Position numbers and translations under genes: made by a program
DNA from: a virus
Taxonomy: Duplodnaviria; Caudoviricetes
Length of the DNA stretch: 54,348 bases
Strand: one strand, 5' to 3'
Virus record (IMG/VR): IMGVR_UViG_3300017963_000320
Location: 1 to 54,348 of that record
Part shown: in pieces, positions 2,680 to 50,157 of the stretch
How positions within the stretch are numbered: the first letter of the stretch is position 1
How the letters are laid out: each line of letters opens with the position of its first letter
The notes under the pieces: model-generated
Seen by the model: the letters and a program-made list of their open reading frames with translations, nothing else
The model's database searches: none
What the model was told of the DNA's origin: nothing

Positions 2680-3072
2680 ATGACAATACCAACACTGAAA
2701 AAGAAGCTCGACAAAATCTTTTCTGAATACATCAGGAAAAGGGATCAAGGAATTTGTTTCACTTGTGAAAACAAGAAAGAATGGAAGAAACAAGATTGTG
2801 GTCATTTCATTCCAAGAGCCTGCACCCCTTTAAGATGGGCAGAAGAAAATTGTCATTGTCAGTGCAAGAAGTGCAACCAGCATCTTGCAGGAAACTTGAA
2901 AGTTTACAGGAACAAACTAATCATGAAATATGGATCAGACTTTGTTGAATATCTTGAACAGCAAAGAAACAAGATTCAAAGACTGACAAAGGCAGAACTG
3001 ATTGCAGTGATTGACTACTATAAAAGCAAGACAAAATCTATTGATCAGGATTCAGAAGAACCACCATTTTAA
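2680..3072 (+). CDS. ninG: NinG/Rap-family recombination endonuclease
   Basis: LDKIFSEYIRKRD, CFTC, DCGHF, NCHCQCKKCN motifs. Confidence 0.85.
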   Translation: MTIPTLKKKLDKIFSEYIRKRDQGICFTCENKKEWKKQDCGHFIPRACTPLRWAEENCHCQCKKCNQHLAGNLKVYRNKLIMKYGSDFVEYLEQQRNKIQRLTKAELIAVIDYYKSKTKSIDQDSEEPPF

Positions 3073-3199
3073 TTTTATATAAAAAATTGTATCATTTATA
3101 AAATTATTTTTATTTCCGAGAATCACTTTCAATTTTCAGATTTTCTTTCATTGTGGATTTCAGGGATCGGCAAACCCTGCAAACTTTAGAACAACCACA

Positions 3200-3269
3200 C
3201 CCTTGCACAGTTCAAGTTTTTGCAGTTTCTTTGACTGCATTTGCCGGACTTGAATTGTCAAGGGTTTTT
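3200..3269 (+). terminator. Long hairpin plus T-run immediately upstream of the initiator gene (possible attenuator)
   Basis: CCCTTGCACAGTTCAAGT pairs with ACTTGAATTGTCAAGGG; inner TGCAGT/ACTGCA stem; TTTTT follows. Confidence 0.5.
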
Positions 3270-3286
3270 CTGACGGAGGCAATAAC

Positions 3287-4003
3287 ATGTCAGATGAATT
3301 TGAGAAAATGCCTGTGCCATTCACACAGGTCAGCAACACTGTTTTGAATGATCCATCCCTTTCATGGAAAGCAAAAGGTGTCTTTGCTTATGTTTACATG
3401 AAGCCTGAAGGATGGACATTTTCAGCAAAGAACATGTCAAAGAATTCAAAGGATTCTATTGATGCAACACAATCAGGAATCAGGGAACTGATTGATGCAG
3501 GCTATCTTACGAAGCAAAAGCAACCTGATGGAAGAATAAAATATACTGCACACCATGAGCCAAAACAGGAAAATCCCTTTTTGGCTGAACCCAAAACAGG
3601 AAAATCCCTTAAAGGGAAAAAGCCTGAAAGGGAAAATCCCTGCCACAATATAAATAAAGATATTTATAGAAATAAAAATGAAGCAAATGTTTTTGCTGTG
3701 CCTTTTCAGAAAGAACATGATCCTGAAATATACAGAACAGGAATCAGGGTTCTTGCACACTTGAACAAAAAGACAGGAAGGAAATTCAAAGAACCAGCAG
3801 GAAACCTTCTTGAAAGGATTGCAGAAGGATTGTCATTTGATGATGCTGTGAAGATCATTGACAACATGTGTTCTGAATGGAAAGGAACAGACTTTGAAAA
3901 GCACCTGCAACCAAACACCCTTTTCAAAAAAGAAAAATATGATGGATATTTGAACAGATCAGTTGAAGAACCTGAAACAGAATTCAAAATAAAGGTTGAT
4001 TGA
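3287..4003 (+). CDS. Phage replication initiator (N-terminal HTH, conserved phage C-terminal domain)
   Basis: FTQVSNTVLNDPSLSWKAKG; HLNKKTGRKF...LQPNTLF...YDGYLN; internal iterons; upstream of DnaB. Confidence 0.85.
   Translation: MSDEFEKMPVPFTQVSNTVLNDPSLSWKAKGVFAYVYMKPEGWTFSAKNMSKNSKDSIDATQSGIRELIDAGYLTKQKQPDGRIKYTAHHEPKQENPFLAEPKTGKSLKGKKPERENPCHNINKDIYRNKNEANVFAVPFQKEHDPEIYRTGIRVLAHLNKKTGRKFKEPAGNLLERIAEGLSFDDAVKIIDNMCSEWKGTDFEKHLQPNTLFKKEKYDGYLNRSVEEPETEFKIKVD
3560..3680. repeat. Iterons plus AT-rich tract: putative replication origin inside the initiator gene
   Basis: CCAAAACAGGAAAATCCCTT twice (3560, 3591), AAAGGGAAAAAGCCT (3611), AAAGGGAAAATCCCT (3627), then AT-rich 3647-3680; lambda-O-like arrangement. 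Confidence 0.7.
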
Positions 4004-4225
4004 ATGAGAACAGAATGTTTGACATGTCAGGATAAACTGTCACCTTCAGAAGCTGTGTTCTGTGAACCATGCAGAACTGCACAAGACCTGAAGCAGTTGA
4101 ATAACCTGAAGAACGATCTCACATGGATCATTGCAGATGCATGCAAAGACAATGATCTTGAATGTGTAAAAAGGGCAAGAGTAGAACTTGCAGAAGTGAA
4201 TGAAATGATTGAAGAATTGATCTAA
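4004..4225 (+). CDS. Small Zn-finger hypothetical protein
   Basis: CLTC...CEPC; lies between initiator and helicase. Confidence 0.65.
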   Translation: MRTECLTCQDKLSPSEAVFCEPCRTAQDLKQLNNLKNDLTWIIADACKDNDLECVKRARVELAEVNEMIEELI

Positions 4226-4241
4226 TAAAGGAGAATCACAA

Positions 4242-5564
4242 ATGTACGAACAAGCAATCATCAGTGCCTTGATGAATGAACCAATGACCCGACCACGAAT
4301 ATTTGCAAAGATATTTGAAAAGGATTTCAACAATAGCCTTGCAAAGGATGCATTCACAACCATCAAACAATTGTATGAAGATGGAACACCAATTGATGAT
4401 GATGAAACCATGACAAGACTTTATGTGAAATATGCATCACTGTTTGAAAACCTTCAACCGATTCACTTTTCAGATGCAATCAATGGTTTGATATACAAAA
4501 GCATCACAGGAAATTGCAGGGAACATGTTCAGTCTTTGCTGGATGACATCAACAATCAGAAAGCAACACTTCCTGAAATACAGGAAAGGATCAAAGACAC
4601 AATTGAAAAGTCAGTTGATTACAGGGTGAACACAAACAAACTTGGAATTGATGAAGTTTCAAGAAAGGCTTATGAAATGATCACCCGACAGTTGAATGTT
4701 GTTCCTTTTGGAATCAGGGAAATTGATAACAAGGCTTGCATGGAACTTGGCACTGTTTCAATCATTGGTGCTCGACCTCGTGTTGGAAAGACAAGCCTTG
4801 CTTTATCCTGCATCAGGAACCAATTGAAAATGCGACAGGGTGTTGGAATTTGGTGTGGTGAAATGTCACCTGAAGATTTGTTCCTGCGAATAATTTCTCA
4901 AGAAATCAATATTCCTTTTCTGAACCTGAAATTGAATTACAAATACCTGTCCGATCTTGAGAAAGAAAAATTTCATCAAGCAAGAAAAGAACTTTCAGAA
5001 ATGAACCTGCACATCAAGACAGGATCAGCAACCACAACAGAACTGAAAGCATGGGCAACAGACATCTGCAAAACAGATGGTGTCAATGTTGTGTGGTGTG
5101 ATTATCTGCAAAGGATGCAACCTAGATTCAACAATGCTTCAAGAAGGGAACAGGTCAGTGATATTTCAAGGGAAATCCACAAGATCGCACAGGAACTGAA
5201 TGTGCCGTTTGCTGTCCTTGCACAGTTGAACAGGCAAGCAGAAAATGCATTCCCTGAAATTGACCACCTTGAAGAATGTTCAAGCATTGAACAGGATGCA
5301 CACCTTGTTTTGTTGATGGACAGACCAAAGGTGAACAAGCCTAATGTAATTAAGCGTGGATACTATGCAGAAACATTTGATCCTGATACAGGAACAGAAA
5401 AGATCAAGCTCGATGAAATGATGGAAGATCAAGACCTGACTGCAATTGTAGTTGCCAAAAACAGGAATGGTTCAACCTGTGTCAGGTTTCTGCAATTTTA
5501 TCCTGAAGCAATGAAGTTTGGGAACCCCTTGTTTGATTTCAAAAGGAAAGGGGAAATGAATTAA
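4242..5564 (+). CDS. dnaB: DnaB-like replicative helicase
   Basis: Walker A GARPRVGKT, GEMS, DYLQ, LAQLNR, IEQDA, VAKNRNG. Confidence 0.95.
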   Translation: MYEQAIISALMNEPMTRPRIFAKIFEKDFNNSLAKDAFTTIKQLYEDGTPIDDDETMTRLYVKYASLFENLQPIHFSDAINGLIYKSITGNCREHVQSLLDDINNQKATLPEIQERIKDTIEKSVDYRVNTNKLGIDEVSRKAYEMITRQLNVVPFGIREIDNKACMELGTVSIIGARPRVGKTSLALSCIRNQLKMRQGVGIWCGEMSPEDLFLRIISQEINIPFLNLKLNYKYLSDLEKEKFHQARKELSEMNLHIKTGSATTTELKAWATDICKTDGVNVVWCDYLQRMQPRFNNASRREQVSDISREIHKIAQELNVPFAVLAQLNRQAENAFPEIDHLEECSSIEQDAHLVLLMDRPKVNKPNVIKRGYYAETFDPDTGTEKIKLDEMMEDQDLTAIVVAKNRNGSTCVRFLQFYPEAMKFGNPLFDFKRKGEMN

Positions 5565-5585
5565 ATTTTGCAAAAAAACTTGCCA

Positions 5586-5615
5586 TTGCTCAAATCTATA
5601 TATTTTATATATAAT
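5586..5615 (+). promoter_or_regulatory. Promoter with a degenerate operator
   Basis: TTGCTC-N18-TATAAT; ATATATTTTATATAT at 5598-5612 (two mismatches to the operator). Confidence 0.45.
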
Positions 5616-5636
5616 TTAACAAAGGAGAATCACCAA

Positions 5637-6197
5637 ATGGAACAGCTTGAACTGTTTGAACAATCTGTCAAAGATGACAGGAAAAAGGGATTGAAAGAAA
5701 AAAAATACGGGGTTCAGCACCTGAACTTTCTGATTCAAGAAAGGGAATGGTTGAATCAGAACAAAGATGAAGGATGTGAATGTCGTGTCTGCGGTCAGAA
5801 TGTCAAGAGATACAAAAGGGCATTCAATTCAGGAATGGCACTTGTCCTGATCAAGTTGTCTGATTGGATTGCAGATCATCCTTCAGAACCTTTTTGCAAA
5901 GTTGAAGATCATCTTCAAGAATGGGGTTTGTCTCATTCAGTCAGGGGTGACTTTCACAAAGCAAGATTTTGGGGTTTGATTGAACCCGACAATGACAGGC
6001 GTGATGACGGATCACAAAGAACAGGATATTGGAAATTGACAAAAGAAGGTTTTGATTTTGTCTTTGAAAGAACAACAATTCCAAGTCATGTTTATCTGTA
6101 CTTAAACAATGAAGAAGGATTCACAAAGGAACACATAAGCATTCGTGATGCATTAGGAACAAAATTTGATTACGAGGCTTTGATGTATGGTCAATGA
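5637..6197 (+). CDS. Hypothetical protein, possible Zn-knuckle plus winged helix
   Basis: RBS before ATG 5637; CRVCGQ; WGLIE...GYWKLTKEG. Confidence 0.65.
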   Translation: MEQLELFEQSVKDDRKKGLKEKKYGVQHLNFLIQEREWLNQNKDEGCECRVCGQNVKRYKRAFNSGMALVLIKLSDWIADHPSEPFCKVEDHLQEWGLSHSVRGDFHKARFWGLIEPDNDRRDDGSQRTGYWKLTKEGFDFVFERTTIPSHVYLYLNNEEGFTKEHISIRDALGTKFDYEALMYGQ

Positions 6198-6427
6198 TGG
6201 CACTGCTTGGAAAAGAAGTTTCATTCACAGGTGATGATGATGAAGCAAGATACAGAATCACAGGGATTGCAGACACAGGACAGAATGTTGTCCTTGTCAT
6301 GAAGAACATTTCTGAAGTGGTCACATTTTATGACAGAAGGATCACTGTTTCACATGAATATTACGAGCAACTTGATAAACAATCCAATGGAAAAGGATCA
6401 CTGATTGTTTCAGTGAAAAATGTCTGA
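6194..6427 (+). CDS. Hypothetical protein
   Basis: Overlapping start/stop with neighbours; genome-typical codon usage. Confidence 0.65.
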   Translation: MMALLGKEVSFTGDDDEARYRITGIADTGQNVVLVMKNISEVVTFYDRRITVSHEYYEQLDKQSNGKGSLIVSVKNV

Positions 6428-6642
6428 TGCGAGTAAACTACGAACAACTAAAAAATTCAAAGCTGAAAGACAAGATCGACAAGGCTATTGCAAAGCCTGT
6501 TGAAAAGCCTGCAAAGGATGATAAAAAAAAGCAAAAGAAAAGAACCAACACAGCAAAGATCAATGATGCAATTGCAAGGGGTGGTTCAGATGGTTTTGAA
6601 TTCTGCACTTCAATGATGAAAAGGAGAACACAAGATGACTGA
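6427..6642 (+). CDS. Hypothetical basic protein
   Basis: Coupled ORF. Confidence 0.6.
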   Translation: MRVNYEQLKNSKLKDKIDKAIAKPVEKPAKDDKKKQKKRTNTAKINDAIARGGSDGFEFCTSMMKRRTQDD

Positions 6643-6943
6643 AGAAATCAAAGAACAGCCAAAAGGCACAATCCTATATATCAAGTTCGACAAATACACA
6701 CAGAAAGCAAAGGTCATCAGGCAGGATGGCAACCATGCATGGATTCAATTCTTTGGATCAACCAAAGTGAAAAAAGAAGTTGATGGAAAAACCAAAACAG
6801 CAAGGATTGATTTCAAGTTGCCTGTTGGAATGACTTTCAAATTGCAGGACAAAGAATATATTTGCGACATGGTAAACATGAAGAACCCAAAAATTTGCAG
6901 GGTGAAACCTGTTGAATACACTGAACAGGATGAAGCAAGATGA
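6635..6943 (+). CDS. Hypothetical protein
   Basis: AAGGAGA RBS; coupled ORF. Confidence 0.65.
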   Translation: MTEEIKEQPKGTILYIKFDKYTQKAKVIRQDGNHAWIQFFGSTKVKKEVDGKTKTARIDFKLPVGMTFKLQDKEYICDMVNMKNPKICRVKPVEYTEQDEAR

Positions 6944-7395
6944 AAAGAAGTGATTTTCTTAAAAGCCTGCTTGGGTTGTCTGCACTAGGTGTTGCAGGGA
7001 TTCCAAAACTGCCAGCATCAACAGAAGAACTTGAACCAATATTTGAAAACAAGTGTGACATTCCTGAATTGATAATTGGTGATTGGAAGTCAGAAATTTA
7101 TTCAATGACATTCACATCACAAATACGAGAACCAATTGACATTTCACATCTTGGTGTTGATAGTCCAATAAAACTTTTGCAACCACCTGAAATAATTTTG
7201 ACATTCCAAATTGCAGATCAATTCATACGATTTTTTCAGAACAGAAAAGTCAAAGTGAATCTTCCTGATGAATGGGCAATGTGCAGTTTAGAATTTCATG
7301 GAACACTGCGAAGGTTTGACCAAAGAATAAGCAATGAAAAATTTGATTACGAAATTGAAATTGCAGTTGATTCACAAATCACAATGACAACATGA
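6940..7395 (+). CDS. Tail-tube-like paralogue with a degenerate Tat-type signal peptide
   Basis: N-terminus MKRSDFLKSLLGLSALGVAG; body aligns by eye with the tail tube at 40119-40508. Confidence 0.55.
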   Translation: MKRSDFLKSLLGLSALGVAGIPKLPASTEELEPIFENKCDIPELIIGDWKSEIYSMTFTSQIREPIDISHLGVDSPIKLLQPPEIILTFQIADQFIRFFQNRKVKVNLPDEWAMCSLEFHGTLRRFDQRISNEKFDYEIEIAVDSQITMTT

Positions 7396-7898
7396 ATCAT
7401 CCAAAGAACCAACTTGATCAAAGCATTGTGCAGGAACTTTTTCAATACGACAGTTCAGGCAATCTTGTGTGGAAAGATGCAGTCAGGAAAAAGTCTGCTG
7501 ATGGTTTTGCAGGAACTGTTGCAAACACAGGATATAGGCAAATTGGCTTTGATGGGAAAAAATATCAGGTGCATGTTCTTGTGTGGAATTATTTCAATGG
7601 GAAAATTCCTGAAGGAAAACTTGTTGATCATATCAATCACAAGAAGACAGACAACAGGTTTGAAAATTTAAGACTTTTAAGCAACAAAGAAAACCTGTCA
7701 CACCGAAAGGTTGCAAAGAACAACAAGACAGGTCACACAGGTGTTTTCTTCAACAGGAAACAGAAGAAATGGTTTGCAGTGATCACAGTGAATGGAAAGA
7801 AACAAGTCATTGGAAGATTTGAAAATGAAGGTCAAGCAATCCAAGCAAGAAAGCAAGCCGAACAAGCAAAGAAATTTTCATACAAGAAAGGAAAATGA
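7392..7898 (+). CDS. HNH homing endonuclease with AP2 domain
   Basis: VDHINHKKTDNRFENLR; NKTGHTGV...W.A.I...IGRF...AIQARKQAE. Confidence 0.9.
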   Translation: MNHPKNQLDQSIVQELFQYDSSGNLVWKDAVRKKSADGFAGTVANTGYRQIGFDGKKYQVHVLVWNYFNGKIPEGKLVDHINHKKTDNRFENLRLLSNKENLSHRKVAKNNKTGHTGVFFNRKQKKWFAVITVNGKKQVIGRFENEGQAIQARKQAEQAKKFSYKKGK

Positions 7899-7901
7899 AA
7901 A

Positions 7902-8702
7902 ATGTCATCACCTATAACATGGACAGACAGCACAAGAAAACTTCATGAACTGCTTCCAAATCCAAGAAACCCAAAAATCCTGACTGAAAAACAAGGTCAA
8001 GGCTTGCAGGTGTCTTTGAAAAAATTTGGTTTTGCAATTCCTGTTTTGATTTCACCATCAAACAAAATCCTTGATGGACACCAAAGAACAAAACTTTTGT
8101 CAGTCATGGAAGAATACGGTGCAGAAGCAGAAATTCCTGTCAGGGTTTCAAGCAGGGAATTCACAGATGAAGAAACAAAGGAATTCATTGTCAGACTGTC
8201 AAAAAATCAAGCAGGCTTTGATTTTGACATGCTTGCAACAGATTATGAAGAAACAGACCTGATCAATTTCGGCTTTGAAGAATGGGAACTTTCAATTGGT
8301 GGTGAAGGTGAAGGTGAAGGTGAAGGTGAAGGTGGTGCTTCAGATGATTACAGCAAGAAGGTTGATTCACCTGTATACGAACCAACAGGAAACAAGCCTG
8401 CACTTTCAGAACTTTGCAGTGATGAAAAGACAAATGAATTGATTGAAGAAATTCAGAATGCAGAACTTCCTGATGATGAAAAAGAATTCCTGATGAAGTG
8501 TGCAACAAGACACAGGGTTTTCAACTACGAAAAGATTGCAGAATATTATTCACATTCATCAAAGGAAGTGCAAGAACTGATGGAAAAGTCTGCACTTGTT
8601 ATCATTGACTTTGAACAAGCAATTGAACAGGGGTACGTCAAGATGTCTGATGCAATCATTGATCAATTCAAAGAAGACTACCCTGAAGAAGTGCCACAAT
8701 GA
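7902..8702 (+). CDS. ParB/Srx-like N-terminal domain protein with (GE)n linker
   Basis: LLPNPRNPK...ILDGHQR; GGTGAA x5 at 8301-8330. Confidence 0.75.
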   Translation: MSSPITWTDSTRKLHELLPNPRNPKILTEKQGQGLQVSLKKFGFAIPVLISPSNKILDGHQRTKLLSVMEEYGAEAEIPVRVSSREFTDEETKEFIVRLSKNQAGFDFDMLATDYEETDLINFGFEEWELSIGGEGEGEGEGEGGASDDYSKKVDSPVYEPTGNKPALSELCSDEKTNELIEEIQNAELPDDEKEFLMKCATRHRVFNYEKIAEYYSHSSKEVQELMEKSALVIIDFEQAIEQGYVKMSDAIIDQFKEDYPEEVPQ

Positions 8703-9547
8703 AGAACAAAGATTTTGCAGTTTTTATCCTGACACATGGCAGACCGAATCTTCTGATCACAGAAAAAACCCTGCGTGATTGTGGATATACAGGAAAAATT
8801 TATTTCATCATAGATGATGAAGACAGCAGTGCAGATGTTTATTTTGAAAAATGGGGTGATGGTGTTGTTCAATTCAACAAGAAAGCAATTGCAGACAAGA
8901 CAGATGAAGGTGACAACTTCAATGACAGAAGAACAATCACACATGCAAGAAATGCATCATTTGAAATTGCAGAAAAACTTGGTGTGAAATATTGGATTCA
9001 ACTTGATGACGATTATCAGGCTTTTGAATATAGGCTTTATCAATTTGGAAACCCCAAAAAGGTGAAGTCACTTGATGCAATCTTTGATGCCTTGATTGAT
9101 TTTTACAAGTCGATCAATGCAAAAAGCATTGCTTGCAGTCAGGGCGGTGATTGGATTGGTGGGAAAGACAATGCAAATGTGAAAAAGAAACTGATCAGGA
9201 AGTGCATGAATTCTTTCATCTGCACCAATGACAGACCATTCAAGTTTGTTGGCAGGATGAATGAAGATGTCAACACATATGCAACACTTGGTTCAAGGGG
9301 TGATTTGTTTTTCACAGTTCTGCTGATTTCAATTGTTCAAAGACAGACACAATCACAGGAAGGTGGAATCACTGACATGTATCTTGATTACGGAACCTAT
9401 GTCAAGGCATTCACAACAGTGATGTTCAATCCATCAGCAACAAAGATTGCATTGATTGGAACAACACAGAAAAGAATCCATCACAACATTTCATGGAATA
9501 ATACTGTTCCGAAAATATTGCATGAAAAACACAAAAAGGAGAATTGA
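8699..9547 (+). CDS. GT-A glycosyltransferase, GREB1/TET-associated (TAGT)-like
   Basis: VFILTHGR, ARN, QLDDDY, NEDV, QSQEGG motifs. Confidence 0.7.
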   Translation: MKNKDFAVFILTHGRPNLLITEKTLRDCGYTGKIYFIIDDEDSSADVYFEKWGDGVVQFNKKAIADKTDEGDNFNDRRTITHARNASFEIAEKLGVKYWIQLDDDYQAFEYRLYQFGNPKKVKSLDAIFDALIDFYKSINAKSIACSQGGDWIGGKDNANVKKKLIRKCMNSFICTNDRPFKFVGRMNEDVNTYATLGSRGDLFFTVLLISIVQRQTQSQEGGITDMYLDYGTYVKAFTTVMFNPSATKIALIGTTQKRIHHNISWNNTVPKILHEKHKKEN

Positions 9548-9550
9548 CAA

Positions 9551-9991
9551 ATGGTGATCCATGACATTGCAAGGACAGTTGCAGAAGCTGAATTCTACAA
9601 GGGGAAAGGGGAACACAGATTCAGAGTCACACACAATGGCGAAATCTTTTACAAGTCATCAGAAGGTTATAAAAAACCAAAAGACTGCGACAAGAATTTC
9701 AACTTTGTTGTTCTTGCAAAATGGATTGCAACACCATCAATGCCTTTTTTCAATACAATAAATGAAGCAGTCAATAAAAACCTGTATACGCAAAACATGG
9801 TAAGCAGTGATGACAGAAAAGGAAAGGTGCAGTTTTATAAAAGCAAAGACAAATACTATTGGCGATTCAAATATCTGAATGGAAGAATTGCAGGATCATC
9901 ATTCAAAGGCTTCAAAACCTTTGATGAAATGTTCGATAATTTCACAATGGTGCTTTGCAGAAAATGGAAAGTGGTAAAGGAAGAAAAATGA
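9551..9991 (+). CDS. Hypothetical protein with YegP/DUF1508-like C-terminus
   Basis: FYKSKDKYYWRFKYLNGRIAGSS. Confidence 0.55.
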   Translation: MVIHDIARTVAEAEFYKGKGEHRFRVTHNGEIFYKSSEGYKKPKDCDKNFNFVVLAKWIATPSMPFFNTINEAVNKNLYTQNMVSSDDRKGKVQFYKSKDKYYWRFKYLNGRIAGSSFKGFKTFDEMFDNFTMVLCRKWKVVKEEK

Positions 9992-10239
9992 ACAATGAAA
10001 AAATGAAAGTTGCAAAGATTAAAATTGCAGTGCCTGATGCAAAAGGCGGTGTTCAACAAGGCTTCAAGTTTGTTCTTGCAAGACCTGACAAAATGTTTCA
10101 GGATGCAGAAGAACAAGCAAAGGAACTTTTCAAGGACACACAGCCACAGCCAAAAATTGTTGGCATTGATGAAATGTGTGAAGTGGAAATGCTGAAATAC
10201 AGGATCAGTGAAAGAATGGACAAAGAAGAAAAGTCATGA
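9988..10239 (+). CDS. Hypothetical protein
   Basis: ATGA overlap with the upstream stop. Confidence 0.6.
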   Translation: MNNEKMKVAKIKIAVPDAKGGVQQGFKFVLARPDKMFQDAEEQAKELFKDTQPQPKIVGIDEMCEVEMLKYRISERMDKEEKS

Positions 10240-10421
10240 CAGAAAAAAAATGGCAAATGAAAGTGAAATGTTCAAAGTGTAAGAAAACTTTGGAAGAAAA
10301 TGAATCAGAACATTACGGTGAAGGCGGTGTTTGGTGGTCTGATTGCAAAGCATATGAAAAGGAATGTGCAAAGCCAACACAAAAGCAGTTGAAAAGCCTG
10401 CAAAAAATAATGGGTTCATGA
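10236..10421 (+). CDS. Small Cys-containing hypothetical protein
   Basis: Coupled ORF; CSKC. Confidence 0.55.
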   Translation: MTEKKWQMKVKCSKCKKTLEENESEHYGEGGVWWSDCKAYEKECAKPTQKQLKSLQKIMGS

Positions 10422-10966
10422 ACAAGAGAAAACAAACTATTGTCAGAACAGGTGACAAGCCTTTGAAGTGGCAGTTGGAAGTGCAAAAACTTTCAGACAT
10501 GGAAAAGGAAGACATCATCAATGTGATGCAAGAAACATGGGGTAATGTTGCACAGACAGCAAAAATCCTGAACATTGATTCTGCAAAACTCCGATCATGG
10601 GTTTTGAATGATCCTGTTTTCTTTGCCAAGCTGGAAGAAATCAGAAAGGCAAGGGTTGAAATGGCAGAAAACAAATTGCTGAATTTGATCAACATGAATC
10701 ATTTCGGTGCGATCAAATTCTTTCTTCAGACACAAGGAAGAAAAGAAGGATACAATGAAAAGGTTGATGTCAATTTGACAACACAGCCACTTGATACAGA
10801 AAGGAACTTCATTGATTTTGACATTGAAGCACTTTCAGATGATGAACTGAAAACCCTTCGGGATATTAAAAGAAAGCAACTGCAAGAAATTTCAGTTGAT
10901 GCACAGGTGATTGATGAATCAGATCAGTCAAAGACAGAATCAGATTCAAATGATGAAGGAACTTGA
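10418..10966 (+). CDS. terS: Terminase small subunit (putative)
   Basis: HTH (GNVAQTAKILNI), AIKFFLQTQGRKEGY; directly upstream of TerL. Confidence 0.75.
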   Translation: MNKRKQTIVRTGDKPLKWQLEVQKLSDMEKEDIINVMQETWGNVAQTAKILNIDSAKLRSWVLNDPVFFAKLEEIRKARVEMAENKLLNLINMNHFGAIKFFLQTQGRKEGYNEKVDVNLTTQPLDTERNFIDFDIEALSDDELKTLRDIKRKQLQEISVDAQVIDESDQSKTESDSNDEGT

Positions 10967-12377
10967 AAGGCTTGATGATGAACATGCATTCAGGTCTTTC
11001 AAGGGGTTTGTCGAAGTTTTTTGGTCTGAAGTGGAACCACAGCCATTCAAGGACAATTGGCACATTGATGCAATCTGTGATCATCTTGAAGCACTTCAGA
11101 AAAGGCAAATCCTCCGACTGCTGATCAACATTCCACCAAGACATTCAAAAAGCCTGCTTGTATCTGTTCTTTTCCCTGCTTGGTGTTGGTTGCATGATCC
11201 TGTTGAACAGTTCCTGACAACTTCCTATGCAGGAAACCTTGCAACAAGGGATGCAAGACGATCAAGGCTTGTGATGCAAAAGCCAAGATTCATGAATTTG
11301 ATCAGGACAAAGCACCCTTCGTTTGAATGGGCAGGTGATCAGAATGTCAAATCCAAATATGAAAACAATCTGCAAGGCTATAGAATGGCAACAGGGGTGC
11401 GTGGACAGCTTACAGGTGACGGTGGATCAATTATCATTGTGGATGATGCAAACAATGTCAAGGAGACTGAAAGCAAGGCAACAAGGGAAGCAACAATTCA
11501 ATGGTGGGATGAAGCACTTTCAACAAGACACAATGATGCTGTGACAGGATGCACTGCTGTTGTTCAGCAAAGAACCCATCAAGAAGACCTGACAGGACAC
11601 ATCTTGAAAGAAGAAGGTGATGATTGGAATCAGTTGATCCTTCCAATGGAATATGAAGGAAAGAACAGATGCAGGTCAACAATCAACTTTGTTGATCCAC
11701 GAAAGAAAAAAGGTGAACTGTTGAATCCTGTCAGGTTTCCAAAAGAAGCAGTTGAAAGAATTGCAAAAAAACTTGGTGCATATGGCAAGGCAGGACAATT
11801 CCAACAAACACCTGCACCCCGAAAAGGTGGCGAACTGCCAACAGAAAAAATTGTGATCATCAAGGAAGAACAAATTCAGAAATCAAACATCATTGAAATT
11901 GTCAGGTATTGGGATAAAGCAGGCAGTGAAGGAAAGGGTGATTTCACAGCAGGTGTGAAAATGTGCTTGATGAAATCAGGAAGAACAATCATTCTTGATG
12001 TGAAACGTGGTCAATGGGGGATTTCAAAAAGGAATGCAATCATAAAACAAACTGCACAAGTCGATGGAACAGGTGTCAATGTATGGGTTGAACAAGAAGG
12101 TGGATCAAGTGGAAAAGAATCAGCAGAAATCACAATCAAAGAACTTGCAGGTTTCAATGTAAAAGCAGAAAGACCAACAGGAGAAAAAACAGCAAGGGCA
12201 GAACCTTTTGCTTCACAGATGGAAGCAGGAAATGTTTACATGGTCAAAGCAGATTGGAACAAAGATTATCTTGATGAATTGCGATTGTTTCCAGCAGGAT
12301 CACATGACGATCAAGTTGATGGTTCATCAGGTGGTTTCAACAAATTACATGCAAGGCAAACAGGTGTGACATGGTAA
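10914..12377 (+). CDS. terL: Terminase large subunit
   Basis: INIPPRHSKS (Walker A), IIVDD (Walker B), WDKA, GDFTAG, HDDQVD nuclease motifs; start uncertain. Confidence 0.95.
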   Translation: MNQISQRQNQIQMMKELERLDDEHAFRSFKGFVEVFWSEVEPQPFKDNWHIDAICDHLEALQKRQILRLLINIPPRHSKSLLVSVLFPAWCWLHDPVEQFLTTSYAGNLATRDARRSRLVMQKPRFMNLIRTKHPSFEWAGDQNVKSKYENNLQGYRMATGVRGQLTGDGGSIIIVDDANNVKETESKATREATIQWWDEALSTRHNDAVTGCTAVVQQRTHQEDLTGHILKEEGDDWNQLILPMEYEGKNRCRSTINFVDPRKKKGELLNPVRFPKEAVERIAKKLGAYGKAGQFQQTPAPRKGGELPTEKIVIIKEEQIQKSNIIEIVRYWDKAGSEGKGDFTAGVKMCLMKSGRTIILDVKRGQWGISKRNAIIKQTAQVDGTGVNVWVEQEGGSSGKESAEITIKELAGFNVKAERPTGEKTARAEPFASQMEAGNVYMVKADWNKDYLDELRLFPAGSHDDQVDGSSGGFNKLHARQTGVTW

Positions 12378-20734: not shown

Positions 20735-20755
20735 AAATCTATAGATTTTATTTTG
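20735..20755. promoter_or_regulatory. Palindrome overlapping a partial operator
   Basis: AAATCTATAGATTT is a perfect 14-bp palindrome built from two operator half-sites. Confidence 0.5.
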
Positions 20756-20797
20756 ATACAAAAACCAACAATTCAATTTGGTGCTGATGGTGGATTC

Positions 20798-21088
20798 ATG
20801 GCAGAAATCATTCAACTGAATTCTGCTGTTCCACCTGACACCATGAAGCAACTCGAAAATGCTGACTACATGCCAGCAAAACAAATGACTGGACAAGGGG
20901 AATTTGAATTGACCCTTTCTTTCATTGAACCAGCAATGACCATCACATGCAAAGTGAAACCAAGCATCAGGAGAAAGGCACATTCAAGAAAGTGGATGCA
21001 TTGCAGGAAGGCAAGATTCAGCAGGGCAGGATCAATCACTGTCACTGCAAGGAACCTGTCAGGATTGACCCCTGCTTCACTTTATTGA
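20798..21088 (+). CDS. Hypothetical protein
   Basis: Genome-typical codon usage; no clear SD; start uncertain. Confidence 0.5.
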   Translation: MAEIIQLNSAVPPDTMKQLENADYMPAKQMTGQGEFELTLSFIEPAMTITCKVKPSIRRKAHSRKWMHCRKARFSRAGSITVTARNLSGLTPASLY

Positions 21089-23411: not shown

Positions 23412-23444
23412 AGGCAGATTGCAAAAGTGCAGTCTGCCTTTTTT
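23412..23444 (+). terminator. Rho-independent terminator closing the early island
   Basis: AGGCAGATTGCA-AAAG-TGCAGTCTGCCT-TTTTT. Confidence 0.8.
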
Positions 23445-23452
23445 ATTTTCCC

Positions 23453-23481
23453 TTGCGTCATTGTTATTTCATCTTTATATT
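23453..23481 (+). promoter_or_regulatory. Putative promoter for the portal/head operon
   Basis: TTGCGT-N17-TATATT upstream of ATG 23512. Confidence 0.45.
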
Positions 23482-23511
23482 TGCACCAATAAATTTTTTA
23501 CAGGTACAAAT

Positions 23512-24972
23512 ATGAATCCACAACCAAATGAAAAACAGGCAAAGATGAATGATGACATGGCAAGAGCCATGATGATTGTCAATACATTCCTGACCCGATC
23601 ACAATTACAGGCACAGCTTGGTTATCAATACGGCACTGAGCGTGACATGTATGAAGCACTTGGATACAAAAGAACACCTACCTTTGAAGACTTTGAAGCA
23701 ATGTACGACAGACAGGACATTGCAAAAACAATCATTGACATTCCTGCCGATGGAACTTGGAAGGGTGAACCCTGCATTGAACAAGTTGGAATGTTGGAAG
23801 GAAAGGTTGATTCCCCTTTTGAAATTAAGTTCCAGCAGATTGCGAACGATTTGAAACTGTGGACATATTTCAACAGGGTTGACAAGATCAGTCAACGTGG
23901 TGAATATGCTGTTTTGTTTCTTGGCTTTGATGATGCAAAGGATTTCAAGCAACTGAAGAACCCTGTTTCAGAAAACACAGAAGGTCTTTCAATCACACAC
24001 ATTCGCCCGATCAGTCAACCAAATGCACAGATCAGCAAATTCAATTCTGATCCTTCATCTTCAAGATTTCAACAGCCTGAGATATACACACTGACTTTTG
24101 ATGATCAGTCACAGCTTCAAGGATCAACTGATCAAGATACAAAATCAAAGTCAGTCAATGTTCATTGGTCAAGAGTTCTGCACATTGCATCTGATCTTCA
24201 GGAATCAGACATCTACGGAACACCTACATTGAAAGCAATCTTGAACAGATTGTTTGATTTGGAAAAAGTGGTTGGTGGAAACAGTGAAGCATTTTGGCGT
24301 GGTGCATATCCTGCAACACAGTTCGACCTTGATCCTGATGTTCAGTTGTCACCAAAAGAGAAAGAAGAACTGCGTGATCAGACAAATGATTTTATAAACA
24401 AATTCAAAAGGACAATCAGAACAAGGGGAATGGACATCAAAGAATTTTCTGCACAAGCAGTTGATCCTTCAGGTGCATTTGATGTCATCATGAAATTGAT
24501 TTCTGCAAAAACAAGAATTCCAATGCGAATGTTGACAGGTTCTGAACGTGGTGAATTATCATCAAGTCAGGACATGGTTTCATTCAATGAAATGCTGTTG
24601 GAAAGAAAAGAAGATTTTGCAACACCTTGTGTGATCAAGCCATTCATTGACAGGTTAATCAAATACGGCATCTTGCCACCTGTTGAATACACTGTGACAT
24701 GGCATCCTGTTACAGTCAGGGATGCAGAAAAACAATCTGTTGTCACAAAGAACCTGACTGAATCAATTGTCAAATATTCTGAATCACTTCCTGCACAGAT
24801 GATTGTTCAACCAAAAGATTTTTTCACAAGGATTCTTGGCTTGTCAATTACAGAAGCTGAAACATTGCTTGAAGAAATGGATGGACAGTTCGATGATGAA
24901 GAAGAAGATGATGAATTTGATTTTGAAATAATTGAAAAAGAACAGGACAATGAACAAACCCCTGACAACTAA
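23512..24972 (+). CDS. Portal protein (DUF1073-type)
   Basis: YDRQDIAKTIIDIPA, VHWSRVLH, GTPTL, IPMRMLTGSERGELSS; precedes MuF-like gene. Confidence 0.85.
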   Translation: MNPQPNEKQAKMNDDMARAMMIVNTFLTRSQLQAQLGYQYGTERDMYEALGYKRTPTFEDFEAMYDRQDIAKTIIDIPADGTWKGEPCIEQVGMLEGKVDSPFEIKFQQIANDLKLWTYFNRVDKISQRGEYAVLFLGFDDAKDFKQLKNPVSENTEGLSITHIRPISQPNAQISKFNSDPSSSRFQQPEIYTLTFDDQSQLQGSTDQDTKSKSVNVHWSRVLHIASDLQESDIYGTPTLKAILNRLFDLEKVVGGNSEAFWRGAYPATQFDLDPDVQLSPKEKEELRDQTNDFINKFKRTIRTRGMDIKEFSAQAVDPSGAFDVIMKLISAKTRIPMRMLTGSERGELSSSQDMVSFNEMLLERKEDFATPCVIKPFIDRLIKYGILPPVEYTVTWHPVTVRDAEKQSVVTKNLTESIVKYSESLPAQMIVQPKDFFTRILGLSITEAETLLEEMDGQFDDEEEDDEFDFEIIEKEQDNEQTPDN

Positions 24973-34449: not shown

Positions 34450-35148
34450 GTGAAAGGTCTTTGGTCTGTTCCTAAAGCATGGAAAGATGAAAGCTGTTTC
34501 ATCATTGGTGGTGGATATTCTGCAAAGAAACTTGACCTGTCACTTTTGAAACCCTTCAATGTCATTGGTTGCAATGATGCATATATCTATGGCGAAGAAA
34601 TTGTTGACATCTGCTATTTTGGCGATCTTGGTTGGTACGATATTCATTGGACTGATGAAGTCAGCTACGATGACATTGGAACATTCAAAGGATTGAAGCA
34701 TTTCAAAAATCTGATTGTCACAAACTGCCATGACAAGTTTCTTGAAAAAGATCAGGAAACACCTGTCAATCCAAAAGTCAAAGTTCTGAAACGAATGGGA
34801 AAGGGAATCAACACCATTCCATCATGTGTTGCATGGAATGGAAACACAGGATCATCTGCAATCAGCCTTGCCTGTCATTTAGGTGTCAAAAGAATCTATC
34901 TTCTTGGTTTTGATATGTGCCTGACACAGGAAGGAAGCAAGCAGGTTGCAAATTGGCATCAGAATTTGAAGAATCCACCAAACAAAGATGTGTACGTCAA
35001 ATGGCTTGAATACTTCAAGCAGATCAAAGAAACTGCATCCATGATTGGACTTGAAATTCTGAATTGCAGTAAAGTTTCAAGAATCAAAGAATTCAAATTT
35101 TGTGAATATGAAAAGGCAATTGAAGCCGAAAGGAAAAACCTGAAATGA
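34450..35148 (+). CDS. DUF115/Maf-like (MptE-like) putative glycosyltransferase
   Basis: CFIIGGGYS, VIGCNDAY, NTGSSAISLA.HLG.KRIYLLGFD; GTG start after AGGAG. Confidence 0.7.
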   Translation: MKGLWSVPKAWKDESCFIIGGGYSAKKLDLSLLKPFNVIGCNDAYIYGEEIVDICYFGDLGWYDIHWTDEVSYDDIGTFKGLKHFKNLIVTNCHDKFLEKDQETPVNPKVKVLKRMGKGINTIPSCVAWNGNTGSSAISLACHLGVKRIYLLGFDMCLTQEGSKQVANWHQNLKNPPNKDVYVKWLEYFKQIKETASMIGLEILNCSKVSRIKEFKFCEYEKAIEAERKNLK

Positions 35149-37502
35149 AACAACTGATCAACATGTGCATTTGCGGTGGCTCAAAAGTCAGACCTGCAAC
35201 CATGAAAGGAATTGATGTGTTGCAGTGCATTTCATGTGGTGTCATCAGACAATCTGTTCACATGACAGAAGCAGAACTCGATGAATGGTATGAAAAACAA
35301 TATCATGATGGCATTTTTTCACATGACTATGATCATGACATAAAAATTGCCAATTTAAGACTGAAAGAATACGGTCTGAAGAAAAACACCACCATCCTTG
35401 ACATTGGCTGTGGAAATGGTGCATTTGTCGATGCAAGCCGAAAGAAAGGGATTCAGGCATACGGTTGTGAAGTTGGTGATGGTGCAAGTCAAAGCAAATT
35501 CACTTATCAGGGGAAAGTTGAAGACATCCATTTCCCGACAGACCATTTTGACACAGTTGTGATCCATGATGTCCTTGAACACCTTGTCAATCCTTTGCAG
35601 TTCTGCATTGAAGTCAGAAGAATATTGAAACAGGGTGGAACATTCATCATTGACTTTCCTGATTTCTTTGTTCCTGAAGGCGATCATCATTGGAAAGAAA
35701 TTGAACACCTGTGGATGCTGAATGAAGAACAGGTTGTCAATATCCTTGTTGGACTTGGTTTCAATTTGAAGGAAATCAAAAAACCCATTCCTTCAAAACT
35801 AGTTTTCTATGCAGAAGCACCAACAGAACAAAGACAATCAATCATCATTCCGCCGGGCATTGGCGACACATGGTGGTCGTTGTTAAAGCTGAAAAGTTTC
35901 TGTGAATCAAATCAAATTGGAATTCCTGATGTTTACATCATGTCAGACAATGGAAAGAAAGACAGGTCAATTGACTTTGTGAAACGAGCACCATTCCTGA
36001 ATGCAAAAGGATATATGAAATATCCAAACAAAGCACAGGATGAAGTTTGGCGTGAAGCATACATGCTTGATGGAAGAACTGTTTTCACAAGAAAAGATTT
36101 GCCTGTTGATGCAGACTATTTCCTTGCTTACAATGGTGTTTTAAGGGCAGGGAAAAACATTGATGAAGTTGACACCTTGTATCAATCAGATTGGCTTTAC
36201 GATCAATTTATAAGCCTTGAAGAAAGATGGTACGGTGAAAACTGTGTCAAGGAATGGGGTGAATACCTGATTGCATATTTTGTTGATCATGGCATGTATG
36301 GAAAGCATTGGATCAAAGAATTCAGCAAAGCACACATCAAGAAAACACTTGAACTGTTGCACAAGCAGACAGGGAAAAAGATTGTCCTTGTTGGTTCTGA
36401 ATGGGATGACAATGCATTCACAAAAGACCTTGCAAAAGGGTTTGACTTTGTGATCAACATGATTGGCAAAACAGAACTTGAAGAATTCATTGGAATGATC
36501 CGATATTCATCAGGGATGATTGGTTTTCCATCAGGTGCAACTTTCATGGGTGTGAAGTTCAAAAAGCCTGTCATGTGCATTTGGAACAAATACTTCACAA
36601 CGAAATTTTGGTGGAATGCCTGCCCGAAAGAAAGCTGGAACAATTGGTATGGCATCATTGATTCAAGACATGCAAAGCCTGACACAGTTGTGAATGGTTT
36701 CATGAAGTTGATTGATGAAAACATTGAAGACACAAAGGAAATTCCTGTGAAAAACAGCAAAAAACCCCAAAAAACAGCCAAAAAAGCCGAAAAAACTGCA
36801 TCCAAAACAGGTGAAAAGAAAACTAAAAGGGATCAGAAAGAGCCTTTCTTTGTGTCAAAAGGTGCAAAATTGGTTGCATGTGTGCTGAAATCAGGTGGTG
36901 ATTTTGACAGAACCTACGTTTCAAGGCTTGAAAAGAACATCAAGAAGCACACAAACTATCCGATCAAACTTGTCTGCCTGTCAGACTTGGAAAACACAGG
37001 TGCAGATGAAACAATCAAACTGAAACACAATTGGCAAAGTTGGTGGTCAAAGATTGAACTGTTCAGACCTGATGTTTTCAATGAAGAACCTGTTGTGTAT
37101 TTTGATCTCGACACTTTGGTGCTGACAAACATTGATGGATTGATTGGTTCAAAACATTCATTCACAATGCTTGAAGCATTCAACAAAAAAAGAAATCCAT
37201 TTGCATCAGGTGTCATGGCATGGTCAGGAAACTATTCAGAAATTTATACTGAATTCAAAAAGAATTTCAGACAGGTCATTGAAAACAGAACAACCAATGA
37301 TCAGAAATTCATCCACAAAGTTTTGACAGAAGAATACGGCATCATTCCTGAAAGGGTGCAGAAGTTTGTGAATGTTGCAAGTTTCAAAAGAGAATGCAAT
37401 CATCCCACAGGCGCACCAAAGGGAACAAACATTGTCTGCTTTCATGGCAAACCAAGACCGATTGAAGTCACCCTTCCGTGGGTTCAGGAGGCATGGGCAT
37501 GA
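35145..37502 (+). CDS. Tri-domain fusion: class I SAM methyltransferase + GT9-like (GT-B) + GT8-like (GT-A) glycosyltransferase
   Basis: ILDIGCGNG, DVLEHL..P; PGIGD...NMIGKT.L...MIG..SG; WWSKIELF, YFDLD, DQ.FI, VCFHGKPRP. Confidence 0.8.
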   Translation: MKQLINMCICGGSKVRPATMKGIDVLQCISCGVIRQSVHMTEAELDEWYEKQYHDGIFSHDYDHDIKIANLRLKEYGLKKNTTILDIGCGNGAFVDASRKKGIQAYGCEVGDGASQSKFTYQGKVEDIHFPTDHFDTVVIHDVLEHLVNPLQFCIEVRRILKQGGTFIIDFPDFFVPEGDHHWKEIEHLWMLNEEQVVNILVGLGFNLKEIKKPIPSKLVFYAEAPTEQRQSIIIPPGIGDTWWSLLKLKSFCESNQIGIPDVYIMSDNGKKDRSIDFVKRAPFLNAKGYMKYPNKAQDEVWREAYMLDGRTVFTRKDLPVDADYFLAYNGVLRAGKNIDEVDTLYQSDWLYDQFISLEERWYGENCVKEWGEYLIAYFVDHGMYGKHWIKEFSKAHIKKTLELLHKQTGKKIVLVGSEWDDNAFTKDLAKGFDFVINMIGKTELEEFIGMIRYSSGMIGFPSGATFMGVKFKKPVMCIWNKYFTTKFWWNACPKESWNNWYGIIDSRHAKPDTVVNGFMKLIDENIEDTKEIPVKNSKKPQKTAKKAEKTASKTGEKKTKRDQKEPFFVSKGAKLVACVLKSGGDFDRTYVSRLEKNIKKHTNYPIKLVCLSDLENTGADETIKLKHNWQSWWSKIELFRPDVFNEEPVVYFDLDTLVLTNIDGLIGSKHSFTMLEAFNKKRNPFASGVMAWSGNYSEIYTEFKKNFRQVIENRTTNDQKFIHKVLTEEYGIIPERVQKFVNVASFKRECNHPTGAPKGTNIVCFHGKPRPIEVTLPWVQEAWA

Positions 37503-40118: not shown

Positions 40119-40508
40119 ATGCCAAAGAATTCACATGGTACAAAGATAACTTTTGCGAGTGGTTTCCTTGCTTGCATCACAGCCTTTGTTTTACCTGATC
40201 AAACAAGAATTGCTCTTGACACTTCTTGCATGGACACCGACACATGGCGGACAAAAATCCCAGGCAAGTTAATTGATCAAGGTGAAATGACTGTTGACCT
40301 GTTCTTTGAACCTGAAAACATTCCTCCGATCAATGGTTCACCCGAAACCATTGTCATACAGTTCACCGATGGTGCGACTTGGAGTTTTACAGGTTTTATG
40401 ACTGCAACAGGTGGTGCATCTGCTGAACTTGATGGATTGATGACACAAACTGTCACCATCACTGTCAGTGGAAAAATTGAAATCACTGGTGACAGTTCAT
40501 CAGGTTAA
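40119..40508 (+). CDS. Major tail tube protein
   Basis: GTKITF, R..LDTS, IPG.LID.GE.TV, W.F.GF.T, T.TI.VSG; upstream of chaperones and TMP. Confidence 0.8.
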   Translation: MPKNSHGTKITFASGFLACITAFVLPDQTRIALDTSCMDTDTWRTKIPGKLIDQGEMTVDLFFEPENIPPINGSPETIVIQFTDGATWSFTGFMTATGGASAELDGLMTQTVTITVSGKIEITGDSSSG

Positions 40509-49473: not shown

Positions 49474-50157
49474 ATGAAACAAGCAATTTATCTGATCATG
49501 TGTTGTCTGCTGTTTGCAGGATGCTTGACAATAAATGATGATGAAAGCAAGAAGGATGAAGTCACAACCAAAGAAGGGATTGTTCAACTTGATCCAAATA
49601 AAACCTACACAGCAGATGAAGTGAAAGCAATCAAGCAAAAACAGGCACTTGCTTTTGATCAGGAAATCTTGAACAGGAAACTTGAATCAGACAAGGACAC
49701 AAGAACAGTTCTGCGAAGGGTGCAATATCTGTGCGGTCTTATTCTACTAATATCAGCGATTGCTTTTTGGAAAGCACCTTCGTCAAATGCTAAACGATGG
49801 GCAATAGGTGGTGCAGTTGGATCAGTCTTTGCTTTGATGGTATGTGCAACCTGTTCTTTCTTTCTTGATTGGATCAGGTGGATCATGCTCGGCTTGCTTT
49901 TAAGTGCAATTATCACTGCTGTTGGTTTTGCTGTTCTTTGGATCAGGAAAAACTATGCATTCAAGACTGTCACCAAGTCAGCACAGAAACACATTGACGC
50001 TGATCCTGAAGGATGGAATGATCTTGTTGAAAGTGGCAAGATTGATCACGATGAAGATGTGAAGAAACAGGTGAAGGATGCAAAGAAACAAATTGAAGCA
50101 GACAACACCAAAGAAAAGAAAGCAAAACTGAAGGAAAGCATCAAAGAATTGAAATGA
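49474..50157 (+). CDS. Lipoprotein with several TM helices (lysis/spanin-like?)
   Basis: Lipobox LFAG-C; about three downstream hydrophobic segments. Confidence 0.6.
   Translation: MKQAIYLIMCCLLFAGCLTINDDESKKDEVTTKEGIVQLDPNKTYTADEVKAIKQKQALAFDQEILNRKLESDKDTRTVLRRVQYLCGLILLISAIAFWKAPSSNAKRWAIGGAVGSVFALMVCATCSFFLDWIRWIMLGLLLSAIITAVGFAVLWIRKNYAFKTVTKSAQKHIDADPEGWNDLVESGKIDHDEDVKKQVKDAKKQIEADNTKEKKAKLKESIKELK

Follow-up and report, generated by a model that had tools for sequence, protein, structure and literature searches.

The tail tube, Hcp and their kin are a textbook example of how a single fold serves again and again in injection machines, and the distal tail protein and the tail terminator are further tube-fold paralogues found in phage tail modules. 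In T4, gp48 and gp54 initiate the tube, as stated in part of a review (PMC8718954). Such tail-module paralogues show that the tube fold has repeatedly been duplicated and reused for parts that bind the end of the tube. Here we analyzed the IMG/VR record IMGVR_UViG_3300017963_000320, a complete virus record with direct terminal repeats (54,348 bases; hereafter the window, meaning this whole stretch), which holds a 151 amino acid open reading frame (ORF) at 6940-7395 on the + strand, hereafter the orphan ORF. Unlike the orphan ORF, the known tail-module paralogues are virion parts, are encoded in the tail module and carry no export signal. The reading that we favor, and that we hold to be about evenly balanced, is that the orphan ORF encodes an exported, strongly diverged paralogue of the tube fold that is made together with the early genes.

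Among described proteins, the tail tubes of the lambda gpV type (PF16460/PF16461) gave the best profile match. Both share a β2-hairpin motif with an invariant Arg, a similar domain length and a collinear C-terminal strand, and the neighbors of the orphan protein in the ESM Atlas include PF16461 clusters. In contrast to gpV-type tubes, the orphan gene lies 33 kb from the tail module, among replication genes, and its product has a signal-like leader as its N-terminus, a hairpin region about 6 residues shorter and no Pfam match.

[quoted passage not shown] Hcp differs from the orphan ORF in that it leaves through the T6SS machine and without an N-terminal signal peptide. As is proposed for the orphan protein, it exits the cell, and it forms free hexameric rings, according to a portion of the same review (PMC8718954). 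The window holds no T6SS genes.

A third point of comparison is given by small envelope-sent phage proteins that block the entry of incoming phage DNA, namely Ltp of phage TP-J34, Llp of T5 and SieA of P22. Ltp is said, in work ascribed to Bebeacua et al. 2013, to target the tape measure protein. Ltp and Llp are lipoproteins, whereas the orphan ORF has no lipobox, and none of the three has a sequence relation to it (Pfam, PHROG and PADLOC scans) or is known to have been described as tube-derived. Judging by its sequence, the orphan ORF appears to be neither a canonical twin-arginine translocation (Tat) substrate nor a lipoprotein-type exclusion protein; it works at most like a tube or Hcp-fold protein, one that fails the cut-offs of the curated families and departs from them in gene position and N-terminus.

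A tube fold joined to a secretion-type leader is an unusual combination. No precedent was found in the open-access papers searched for a tail-tube or Hcp-fold protein with a general secretory (Sec) or Tat leader among early genes, and the supplements of large structural surveys could hold cases. If the favored reading is true, a copy with a secretion leader that is made with the replication genes would extend the reuse of this fold to an envelope role outside the virion, and would point to structural mimicry of a virion part as a means by which a phage disturbs its competitors or host sensing. These implications rest on the orphan gene of one uncultured phage, a sequence signal of 36 residues and a language-model structure of medium confidence.

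Probable relationship of the orphan ORF to the lambda-type tube family

The orphan ORF, its segments and the tube protein used as a reference are located as follows.

6940-7395 (+): orphan ORF, 151 amino acids (reading frame, ATGA overlaps, coding log-odds, matching assembly)
6940-7017 (+): signal-peptide-like leader, residues 1-26 (by-eye reading, hydropathy)
7018-7056 (+): acidic linker ending in Cys39, residues 27-39 (sequence)
7057-7392 (+): putative tube-fold domain, residues 40-151, collinear with tube residues ~6-124 (hhalign, ESM Atlas neighbors)
7090-7197 (+): segment of significant signal, residues 51-86, strand β2 and the β2-β3 hairpin (hhalign local alignment, HMMER)
40119-40508 (+): major tail tube protein, 129 amino acids (phrog_158, PF16460/PF16461 on its relatives, structure matches)

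An earlier reading of this DNA, made from the letters and a list of ORFs (hereafter the sequence-only reading), had taken the protein encoded at 40119 as the tube protein of this phage, and we confirm it as a lambda gpV-type tube protein by structure and gene position. Its AlphaFold2 (AF2) model, built on a deep alignment (predicted local distance difference test, pLDDT, of 81.6), matched lambda gpV tubes in Foldseek (TM by query 0.77-0.79; 7t2e at 0.77, E = 3.6e-8), and also the tubes of the Photorhabdus virulence cassette (PVC) and the antifeeding prophage (AFP), monocin and Hcp; 7t2e and 8k36 are solved lambda tubes. Against tube clusters the protein reached TM 0.75-0.86. Library scans gave Phage_TTP_11/12 matches under the cut-off and phrog_158 (major tail) at 3e-7, and PF16460/PF16461 are precomputed on its relatives. 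The gene occupies the canonical slot, with neck genes before it and the tail chaperone and tape-measure genes after it. The strands of the model span residues 9-12, 17-24, 29-35, 45-53, 56-62, 76-81, 87-102 and 108-123.

The sequence-only reading had further proposed, from a by-eye alignment, that the orphan ORF is a paralogue of this tube protein, and the ten peptide blocks that it quoted are all present and collinear. The tube family was defined by a first search, which found 11 proteins among 17 candidates, and by a profile search in which 663 of 5,746 candidates passed E <= 0.001; of these 663, the 120 listed were aligned. With hhalign, this 120-sequence profile detected the orphan ORF in the proposed register with a score of 30.6 (P = 1.8e-4), a value reached by none of 300 shuffles (mean 12.0, standard deviation 2.6, maximum 23.0); the reversed sequence scored 9.7. 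Among the 178 window ORFs of at least 70 amino acids on both strands, the orphan ORF ranked second, after the tube protein itself (229) and ahead of the next ORF (24.5). HMMER with the tube-family profile gave 10.1 bits for a domain at residues 51-76, reached by none of 500 shuffles, and the orphan ORF topped the 177 non-self ORFs of the window. These comparisons place remote homology to the lambda-like tail tube family beyond chance.

The local hhalign alignment pairs ORF residues 51-86 with tube residues 18-52, and the extended one is collinear from ORF 45-151 to tube 12-124 and reproduces every block that had been read by eye; both the extended and the global alignment reach the last residue of the two proteins. 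The segment 51-86 includes R63, E64, I66, D67, S69 and H70, where R63 corresponds to the Arg that is invariant in all 120 aligned family sequences and the family His (87%) is also kept. Across 22 core positions the orphan ORF carries the family majority residue at 10 and the residue of the 40119 protein at 5, which argues for an old or foreign member of the family and not a recent copy of the 40119 gene. At the DNA level, blastn of the orphan ORF against the tube gene and the whole window returned chance words only. We propose that the orphan protein would be an old, strongly diverged relative of the lambda gpV-type family to which the 40119 protein belongs.

The ESM Atlas holds a model of exactly this protein (pLDDT 0.70, predicted template modelling score, pTM, 0.58). 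Its nearest clusters are tail tubes (PF06199, PF16461), a 'putative tail protein', the Bacteroidota TssD (residues 39-150) and immunoglobulin-domain clusters, in one of which 17% of the members bear tube families. These neighbors have a TM of 0.47-0.52 by query, with target values as high as 0.58; leader and linker make up about 40 of the 151 query residues and so depress the query-normalised value. In the hhalign alignment every strand of the tube model has a counterpart in the ORF, including a possible first strand at residues 41-46. Taking profile and model together, we regard the assignment of a tube fold as likely, but not proven.

The hairpin region deserves separate mention, as the sequence-only reading had described a missing tube segment and had called the protein stacking-defective. 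The ORF is shorter by a net of about 6 residues, which are missing from the second arm of the 29-53 hairpin or from the stretch immediately behind it. The hhalign modes disagree on where the gap falls, one alignment setting it against tube residues 45-50 and another placing it 8 residues later, so that its exact position is uncertain. The first ~7 residues of the tube protein are also replaced. The first arm of the β2-β3 hairpin is, together with strand β2, the best-conserved part of the ORF, and the second arm is shortened. This hairpin is the main inter-ring contact of tubes; deleting its loop or the N-terminus abolishes tube formation in T5, and loop removal in YSD1 leaves mostly free hexameric rings (all from sections of PMC8718954). 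Since the best-conserved part includes an arm of the inter-ring contact, a stacking defect is not simply derivable from the sequence, and it is a fair guess that the protein may still form or bind rings but be unable to extend a tube. A complex prediction of the tube protein (120-sequence alignment) with ORF residues 40-151 returned an interaction prediction score from aligned errors (ipSAE) of 0.00 and 0.00, which is no answer and speaks neither for nor against binding.

Several observations weigh against the orphan ORF being an exported tube paralogue. In pairwise comparison the relationship is at chance: BLASTP against the 40119 protein gave E = 15, and the five blocks of the by-eye alignment total a BLOSUM62 score of 70, under the shuffle mean (when the best collinear chain of five blocks of these lengths is sought, the real pair reaches 83; 40 ORF shuffles gave a mean of 74.0, standard deviation 7.3 and maximum 91). 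The 11-sequence profile gave P = 0.011 and an hhalign probability of 4%, and the probability is just 48% with the 120-sequence profile. The sequence signal is limited to about 36 residues (51-86). Taken by themselves, residues 87-151 obtain a score of 11.9 (P = 0.19), which 18 of 120 shuffles match or beat, although their best local alignment still sets the final strands of the two proteins on each other in the collinear register; the 8.9 obtained by residues 1-50 is matched or beaten by 87 of 120. The tube models of Pfam, PHROG and NCBIfam miss the orphan ORF at E <= 10, and membership in the curated families PF16460/PF16461 was not found, with 0 Pfam families at that threshold. A TM of ~0.5 is borderline when set against 0.75-0.86 for the true tube protein. 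AF2 without an alignment reached a pLDDT of 36.5, leaving no independent model, and Foldseek on this model is meaningless (6 matches at E <= 10, none at E <= 0.001).

The same holds for the isolation of the protein. Both a word-indexed search (32 candidates) and an exhaustive phmmer search of 1,835,955,588 cluster representatives returned one match, the orphan ORF itself; tblastn against 50,697 phage records gave 3 records, all at E of at least 1, a pattern scan of IMG/VR gave 20 stretches with 0 confirmed, and there were 0 matches among PDB sequences and 0 in PADLOC. The only library hit in Pfam, PHROG, NCBIfam and PADLOC was a 19-residue N-terminal match to phrog_33011 (E = 0.16). All knowledge of the protein probably comes from a single data set. 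Export, for its part, rests on a hydropathy heuristic that flagged 8 of the 90 non-overlapping + strand ORFs and is weak, since it flagged the cytoplasmic tube protein too. Comparisons of the portal, DnaB, tRNA genes and tube-related metagenome-assembled genomes (MAGs) gave no host, and hence no type of envelope.

The explanation that best survives beside the favored one is chance resemblance, in which an unrelated small, exported, β-rich orphan carries a 26-36-residue motif that fits the tube profile by accident. It would account for a significant signal in residues 51-86 only, for the silence of the library tube models and for pairwise alignment at chance, and a TM of ~0.5 between small β-sandwiches is not decisive. 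We nevertheless consider it unlikely: in two profile methods the score exceeds those of all shuffles (0/300 and 0/500) and of all other window ORFs, collinearity extends over the whole alignment, and at least 7 of the 9 listed Atlas neighbor rows are tube, tail or TssD or carry a tube family, rather than being mixed β-sandwich folds. The paralogue claim of the sequence-only reading was lost at the pairwise level and recovered at the level of the family, an example of how a by-eye alignment at pairwise chance can point to a real relationship that is visible only through a family profile.

The N-terminal leader and its possible export route

The N-terminus of the orphan protein reads as had been quoted and resembles a tripartite signal peptide. 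The n-region is basic (K2, R3 and K8, with D5); the h-region, S9-G20, consists of 12 residues of Leu, Gly, Ser, Ala and Val with a mean Kyte-Doolittle value of 1.68; and the c-region contains P22, K23 and P25; small residues occur at 18-20 and 24-26. In its n-region and h-region the leader agrees with a Sec-type signal peptide, and candidate cleavage sites, read by eye, would lie after G20 (V-A-G, 18-20) or A26 (L-P-A, 24-26). Hydropathy maxima are 2.12 for a 12-residue window, at residue 10, and 1.35 for a 19-residue window; the latter value indicates a segment too short and too weak for a membrane-spanning helix, so that a stable membrane anchor is unlikely. There is no lipobox; the only N-terminal Cys, residue 39, comes long after the h-region. 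An acidic mature protein is predicted (isoelectric point, pI, 4.5), with two cysteines, at residues 39 and 115.

From these features it is reasonably probable that the leader exports the protein by some route. In the mechanism that we propose, the first few residues of the tube domain would have given way to a short acidic linker, preceded by a leader of ~26 residues that resembles a cleavable signal peptide. The leader would most likely use the general (Sec) route to carry the tube-fold domain over the cytoplasmic membrane, a degenerate Tat route being less likely. We infer the fold, the export and the cleavage of the protein.

The Tat route was the one suggested by the sequence-only reading. 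As a rival explanation it holds that a degenerate twin-arginine signal, with R-S for R-R, exports a prefolded, possibly oligomeric, tube-like domain. The leader motif is K-R-S-D-F-L-K, which gives either R-S, or K-R with one residue too many before F-L-K, and it matches neither the TatP pattern RR.[FGAVML][LITMVF] nor its KR and R[RKNQ] variants. Pfam and NCBIfam, which presumably include the Tat-signal models PF10518 and TIGR01409, gave no family for the orphan ORF at E <= 10, although HMMER filters may drop weak matches to short models, and there are no homologues in which an intact RR could appear. The leader is longer than a typical Sec leader, and it has the secondary features of Tat signals: F6-L7-K8 after basic residues, a weakly hydrophobic h-region and K23 in the c-region, where a basic residue occupies the 'Sec-avoidance' position (criteria from part of PMC6708511). 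The same portion of that source describes RR as near-invariant and names a single native KR substrate (PMC6708511). In a TorA-GFP reporter, export tolerated replacement of the second Arg by Lys, Asn or Gln, and Ser is not among the tolerated substitutions in the section of the report concerned (PMC1182353). The label 'Tat-like' is accordingly apt for the FLK, the Gly/Ser/Ala-rich h-region and the Lys of the c-region, and not for the RR pair or the TatP pattern. Tat targeting itself found no support, as the twin arginine is absent, the TatP regular expression failed and no Pfam or NCBIfam family matched; we regard both Tat-dependent export and the rival explanation built on it as improbable.

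Gene context and possible roles

The genes around the orphan ORF in the left part of the window are listed below.

Left 10 kb (+): replication-type gene with helix-turn-helix (HTH) and Phg_2220_C domains (domain matches)
Starts at 4242 (+): DnaB helicase
Left 10 kb, downstream of DnaB (+): several small genes without assigned function
7392-7898 (+): HNH-AP2 endonuclease (HNH_3 plus AP2 domain)
Starts at 7902 (+): ParB-like protein (phrog_620)
Starts at 8699 (+): TET-associated glycosyltransferase (PF20691, 1.4e-33)
Left 10 kb (+): DUF1508 protein

The sequence-only reading had placed the orphan ORF among non-structural genes, which is borne out by DnaB (4242), the HNH-AP2 endonuclease (7392), the ParB-like protein (7902) and the TET-associated glycosyltransferase (8699). 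The ORF sits between the small genes downstream of DnaB and the HNH endonuclease gene, outside the tail module. An ATGA overlap joins it to either neighbor: its ATG shares these letters with the stop of the upstream gene, and its own stop shares them with the start codon of the HNH gene. Codon log-odds against the long genes of the phage are 0.358 in its own frame; the two remaining + frames give -0.408 and -0.855, and the three reverse-strand frames -0.372, 0.099 and -0.067. A separate assembly of public reads spans the ORF with 0 differences. No terminator-like site was found on the + strand within 3000-11000, and promoter-like sites are fewer than expected from shuffles (11 vs 18.1). By these signs the orphan ORF is a genuine gene that looks expressed and belongs to an operon-like series of early genes. 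Its translational coupling to replication and DNA-modification genes suggests that it is probably made early, apart from the virion module.

The endonuclease gene whose start overlaps the stop codon of the orphan ORF (HNH_3 plus AP2, 7392-7898) is probably a homing endonuclease inserted in the early operon.

As to function, the likeliest role of the orphan protein would be that of an envelope exclusion factor that binds parts of an incoming siphophage tail, such as the tape measure, the tail tip or the end of the tube. We put this forward tentatively and with low confidence; it would be akin to the action of the exported Ltp-type proteins. Small exported proteins of early or prophage genes are classically superinfection-exclusion factors.

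The scan of all window ORFs, and not a prior hypothesis, brought out one further candidate.

20753-21088 (+): possible second tube-derived ORF, 111 amino acids, TTG start, leaderless, with a basic C-terminal half (profile scan)

The N-terminal half of this ORF shows the first- and second-strand motifs of the family and the strand after the hairpin, and its last strand aligns too; the C-terminal half is strongly basic, and the long seventh strand is missing from it. Library scans gave no family matches for it. We regard its tube-like character as weak and as a lead only. A bolder proposal, which we think doubtful, is that the tail-tube fold was recruited for non-structural work at least once, perhaps twice, such that the product of the ORF at 6940, exported early in infection, would form ring or cap assemblies in the envelope that seize the tape measure, tail tip or open tube end of incoming siphophages and block genome entry, a superinfection exclusion by mimicry of a virion part, and the leaderless ORF at 20753 would act, for example, as a cytoplasmic decoy for tube-sensing immunity.

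A decoy role has also to be weighed for the orphan ORF itself. Here the N-terminus would be no export signal, and an early tube-like protein would disturb a tube-sensing host defence or regulate tail assembly. Such defences exist: the tail tube proteins of phages trigger DSR2, which a phage protein in turn counteracts, as described in parts of two reports (PMC11087589, PMC11263360), and the place of the orphan ORF among early genes would agree with this role, which the leaderless ORF at 20753 would suit better. Against it, the leader of the orphan protein is tripartite like a signal peptide, PADLOC gave no match and no tube-derived decoy was found in the open-access literature; we judge a decoy role for the orphan ORF to be quite improbable. 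Least probable of all is a decaying relic, a duplicated or captured tube gene drifting without function and with an accidental leader-like N-terminus, which the extreme divergence, the absence of homologues and the second, apparently truncated tube-like ORF in the same genome would fit, but which is countered by an intact frame of 151 codons with clear coding bias, by translational coupling on both sides, by retention of the family's invariant Arg and motif His, and by the rarity with which phage genomes keep dead genes of such size.

The surrounding phage genome

The clear genes of the window are all on the + strand, and its guanine-plus-cytosine (GC) content is 37-42%. The remaining landmarks are the following.

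10911-12377 (+): terminase large subunit
Starts at 12726 (+): amidoligase
Starts at 14223 (+): DUF932 protein
23419-24972 (+): portal
Starts at 32820 (+): major head protein, with neck proteins after it
Starts at 40530 (+): tail chaperone
Starts at 41260 (+): tape measure

No cultured phage is close to this one. For its portal protein the nearest cultured relatives come from haloarchaeal viruses (34.5% identity over 77% of the query) and from Brevundimonas phages; the best cultured relatives of the portal, at 25-35% identity, are in unrelated hosts, and likewise for DnaB. No tRNA genes were found in the window. A tube-alignment scan of genome contigs assigned 2 of 101 stretches, one to a Phycisphaerae MAG (39%) and one to a Gammaproteobacteria MAG (34%). 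The search for related phages through flanking genes yielded 9 stretches for the ParB-like protein, 19 for a 102 amino acid neighbor, 31 for DnaB and 10 for a 209 amino acid neighbor, with 0 confirmed in each case, and megablast of window positions 1-25000 against phages gave zero matches; the phage has no close relative in phage records or IMG/VR. The sequencing runs that carry DNA of the window are labelled as sediment and seawater metagenomes, and none of the runs listed is of RNA. The two DNA runs are probably one data set filed twice, with contigs equal in length and depths nearly equal; they give neither population variation nor independent occurrence, and both may be the source of the window.

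The ParB-like protein (phrog_620) adjoins the TET-associated glycosyltransferase at 7902-9547 (+), a pair that suggests hypermodification of the phage DNA. Within the ParB-like protein lies a Gly-Glu dipeptide repeat (8293-8343, +), at which contigs break and which read placement passed over as a repeat. The gene for the terminase large subunit is separated by ~11 kb from the portal gene, with the amidoligase (12726) and the DUF932 protein (14223) among the intervening genes. In the virion module, a 785 amino acid protein (35145-37502, +) has methyltransferase-like matches at residues 46-213 and a glycosyltransferase match at residues 577-784 (phrog_1962, 2.3e-35). No endolysin was recognised among the window ORFs scanned. 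Finally, a 227 amino acid protein at 49474-50157 (+) adjoins a staphylococcal-nuclease homologue (49099) and has a lipoprotein-type leader (Cys17 after L-F-A-G) followed by ~3 hydrophobic segments, with a tail that is charged; it may act in the envelope or in lysis.

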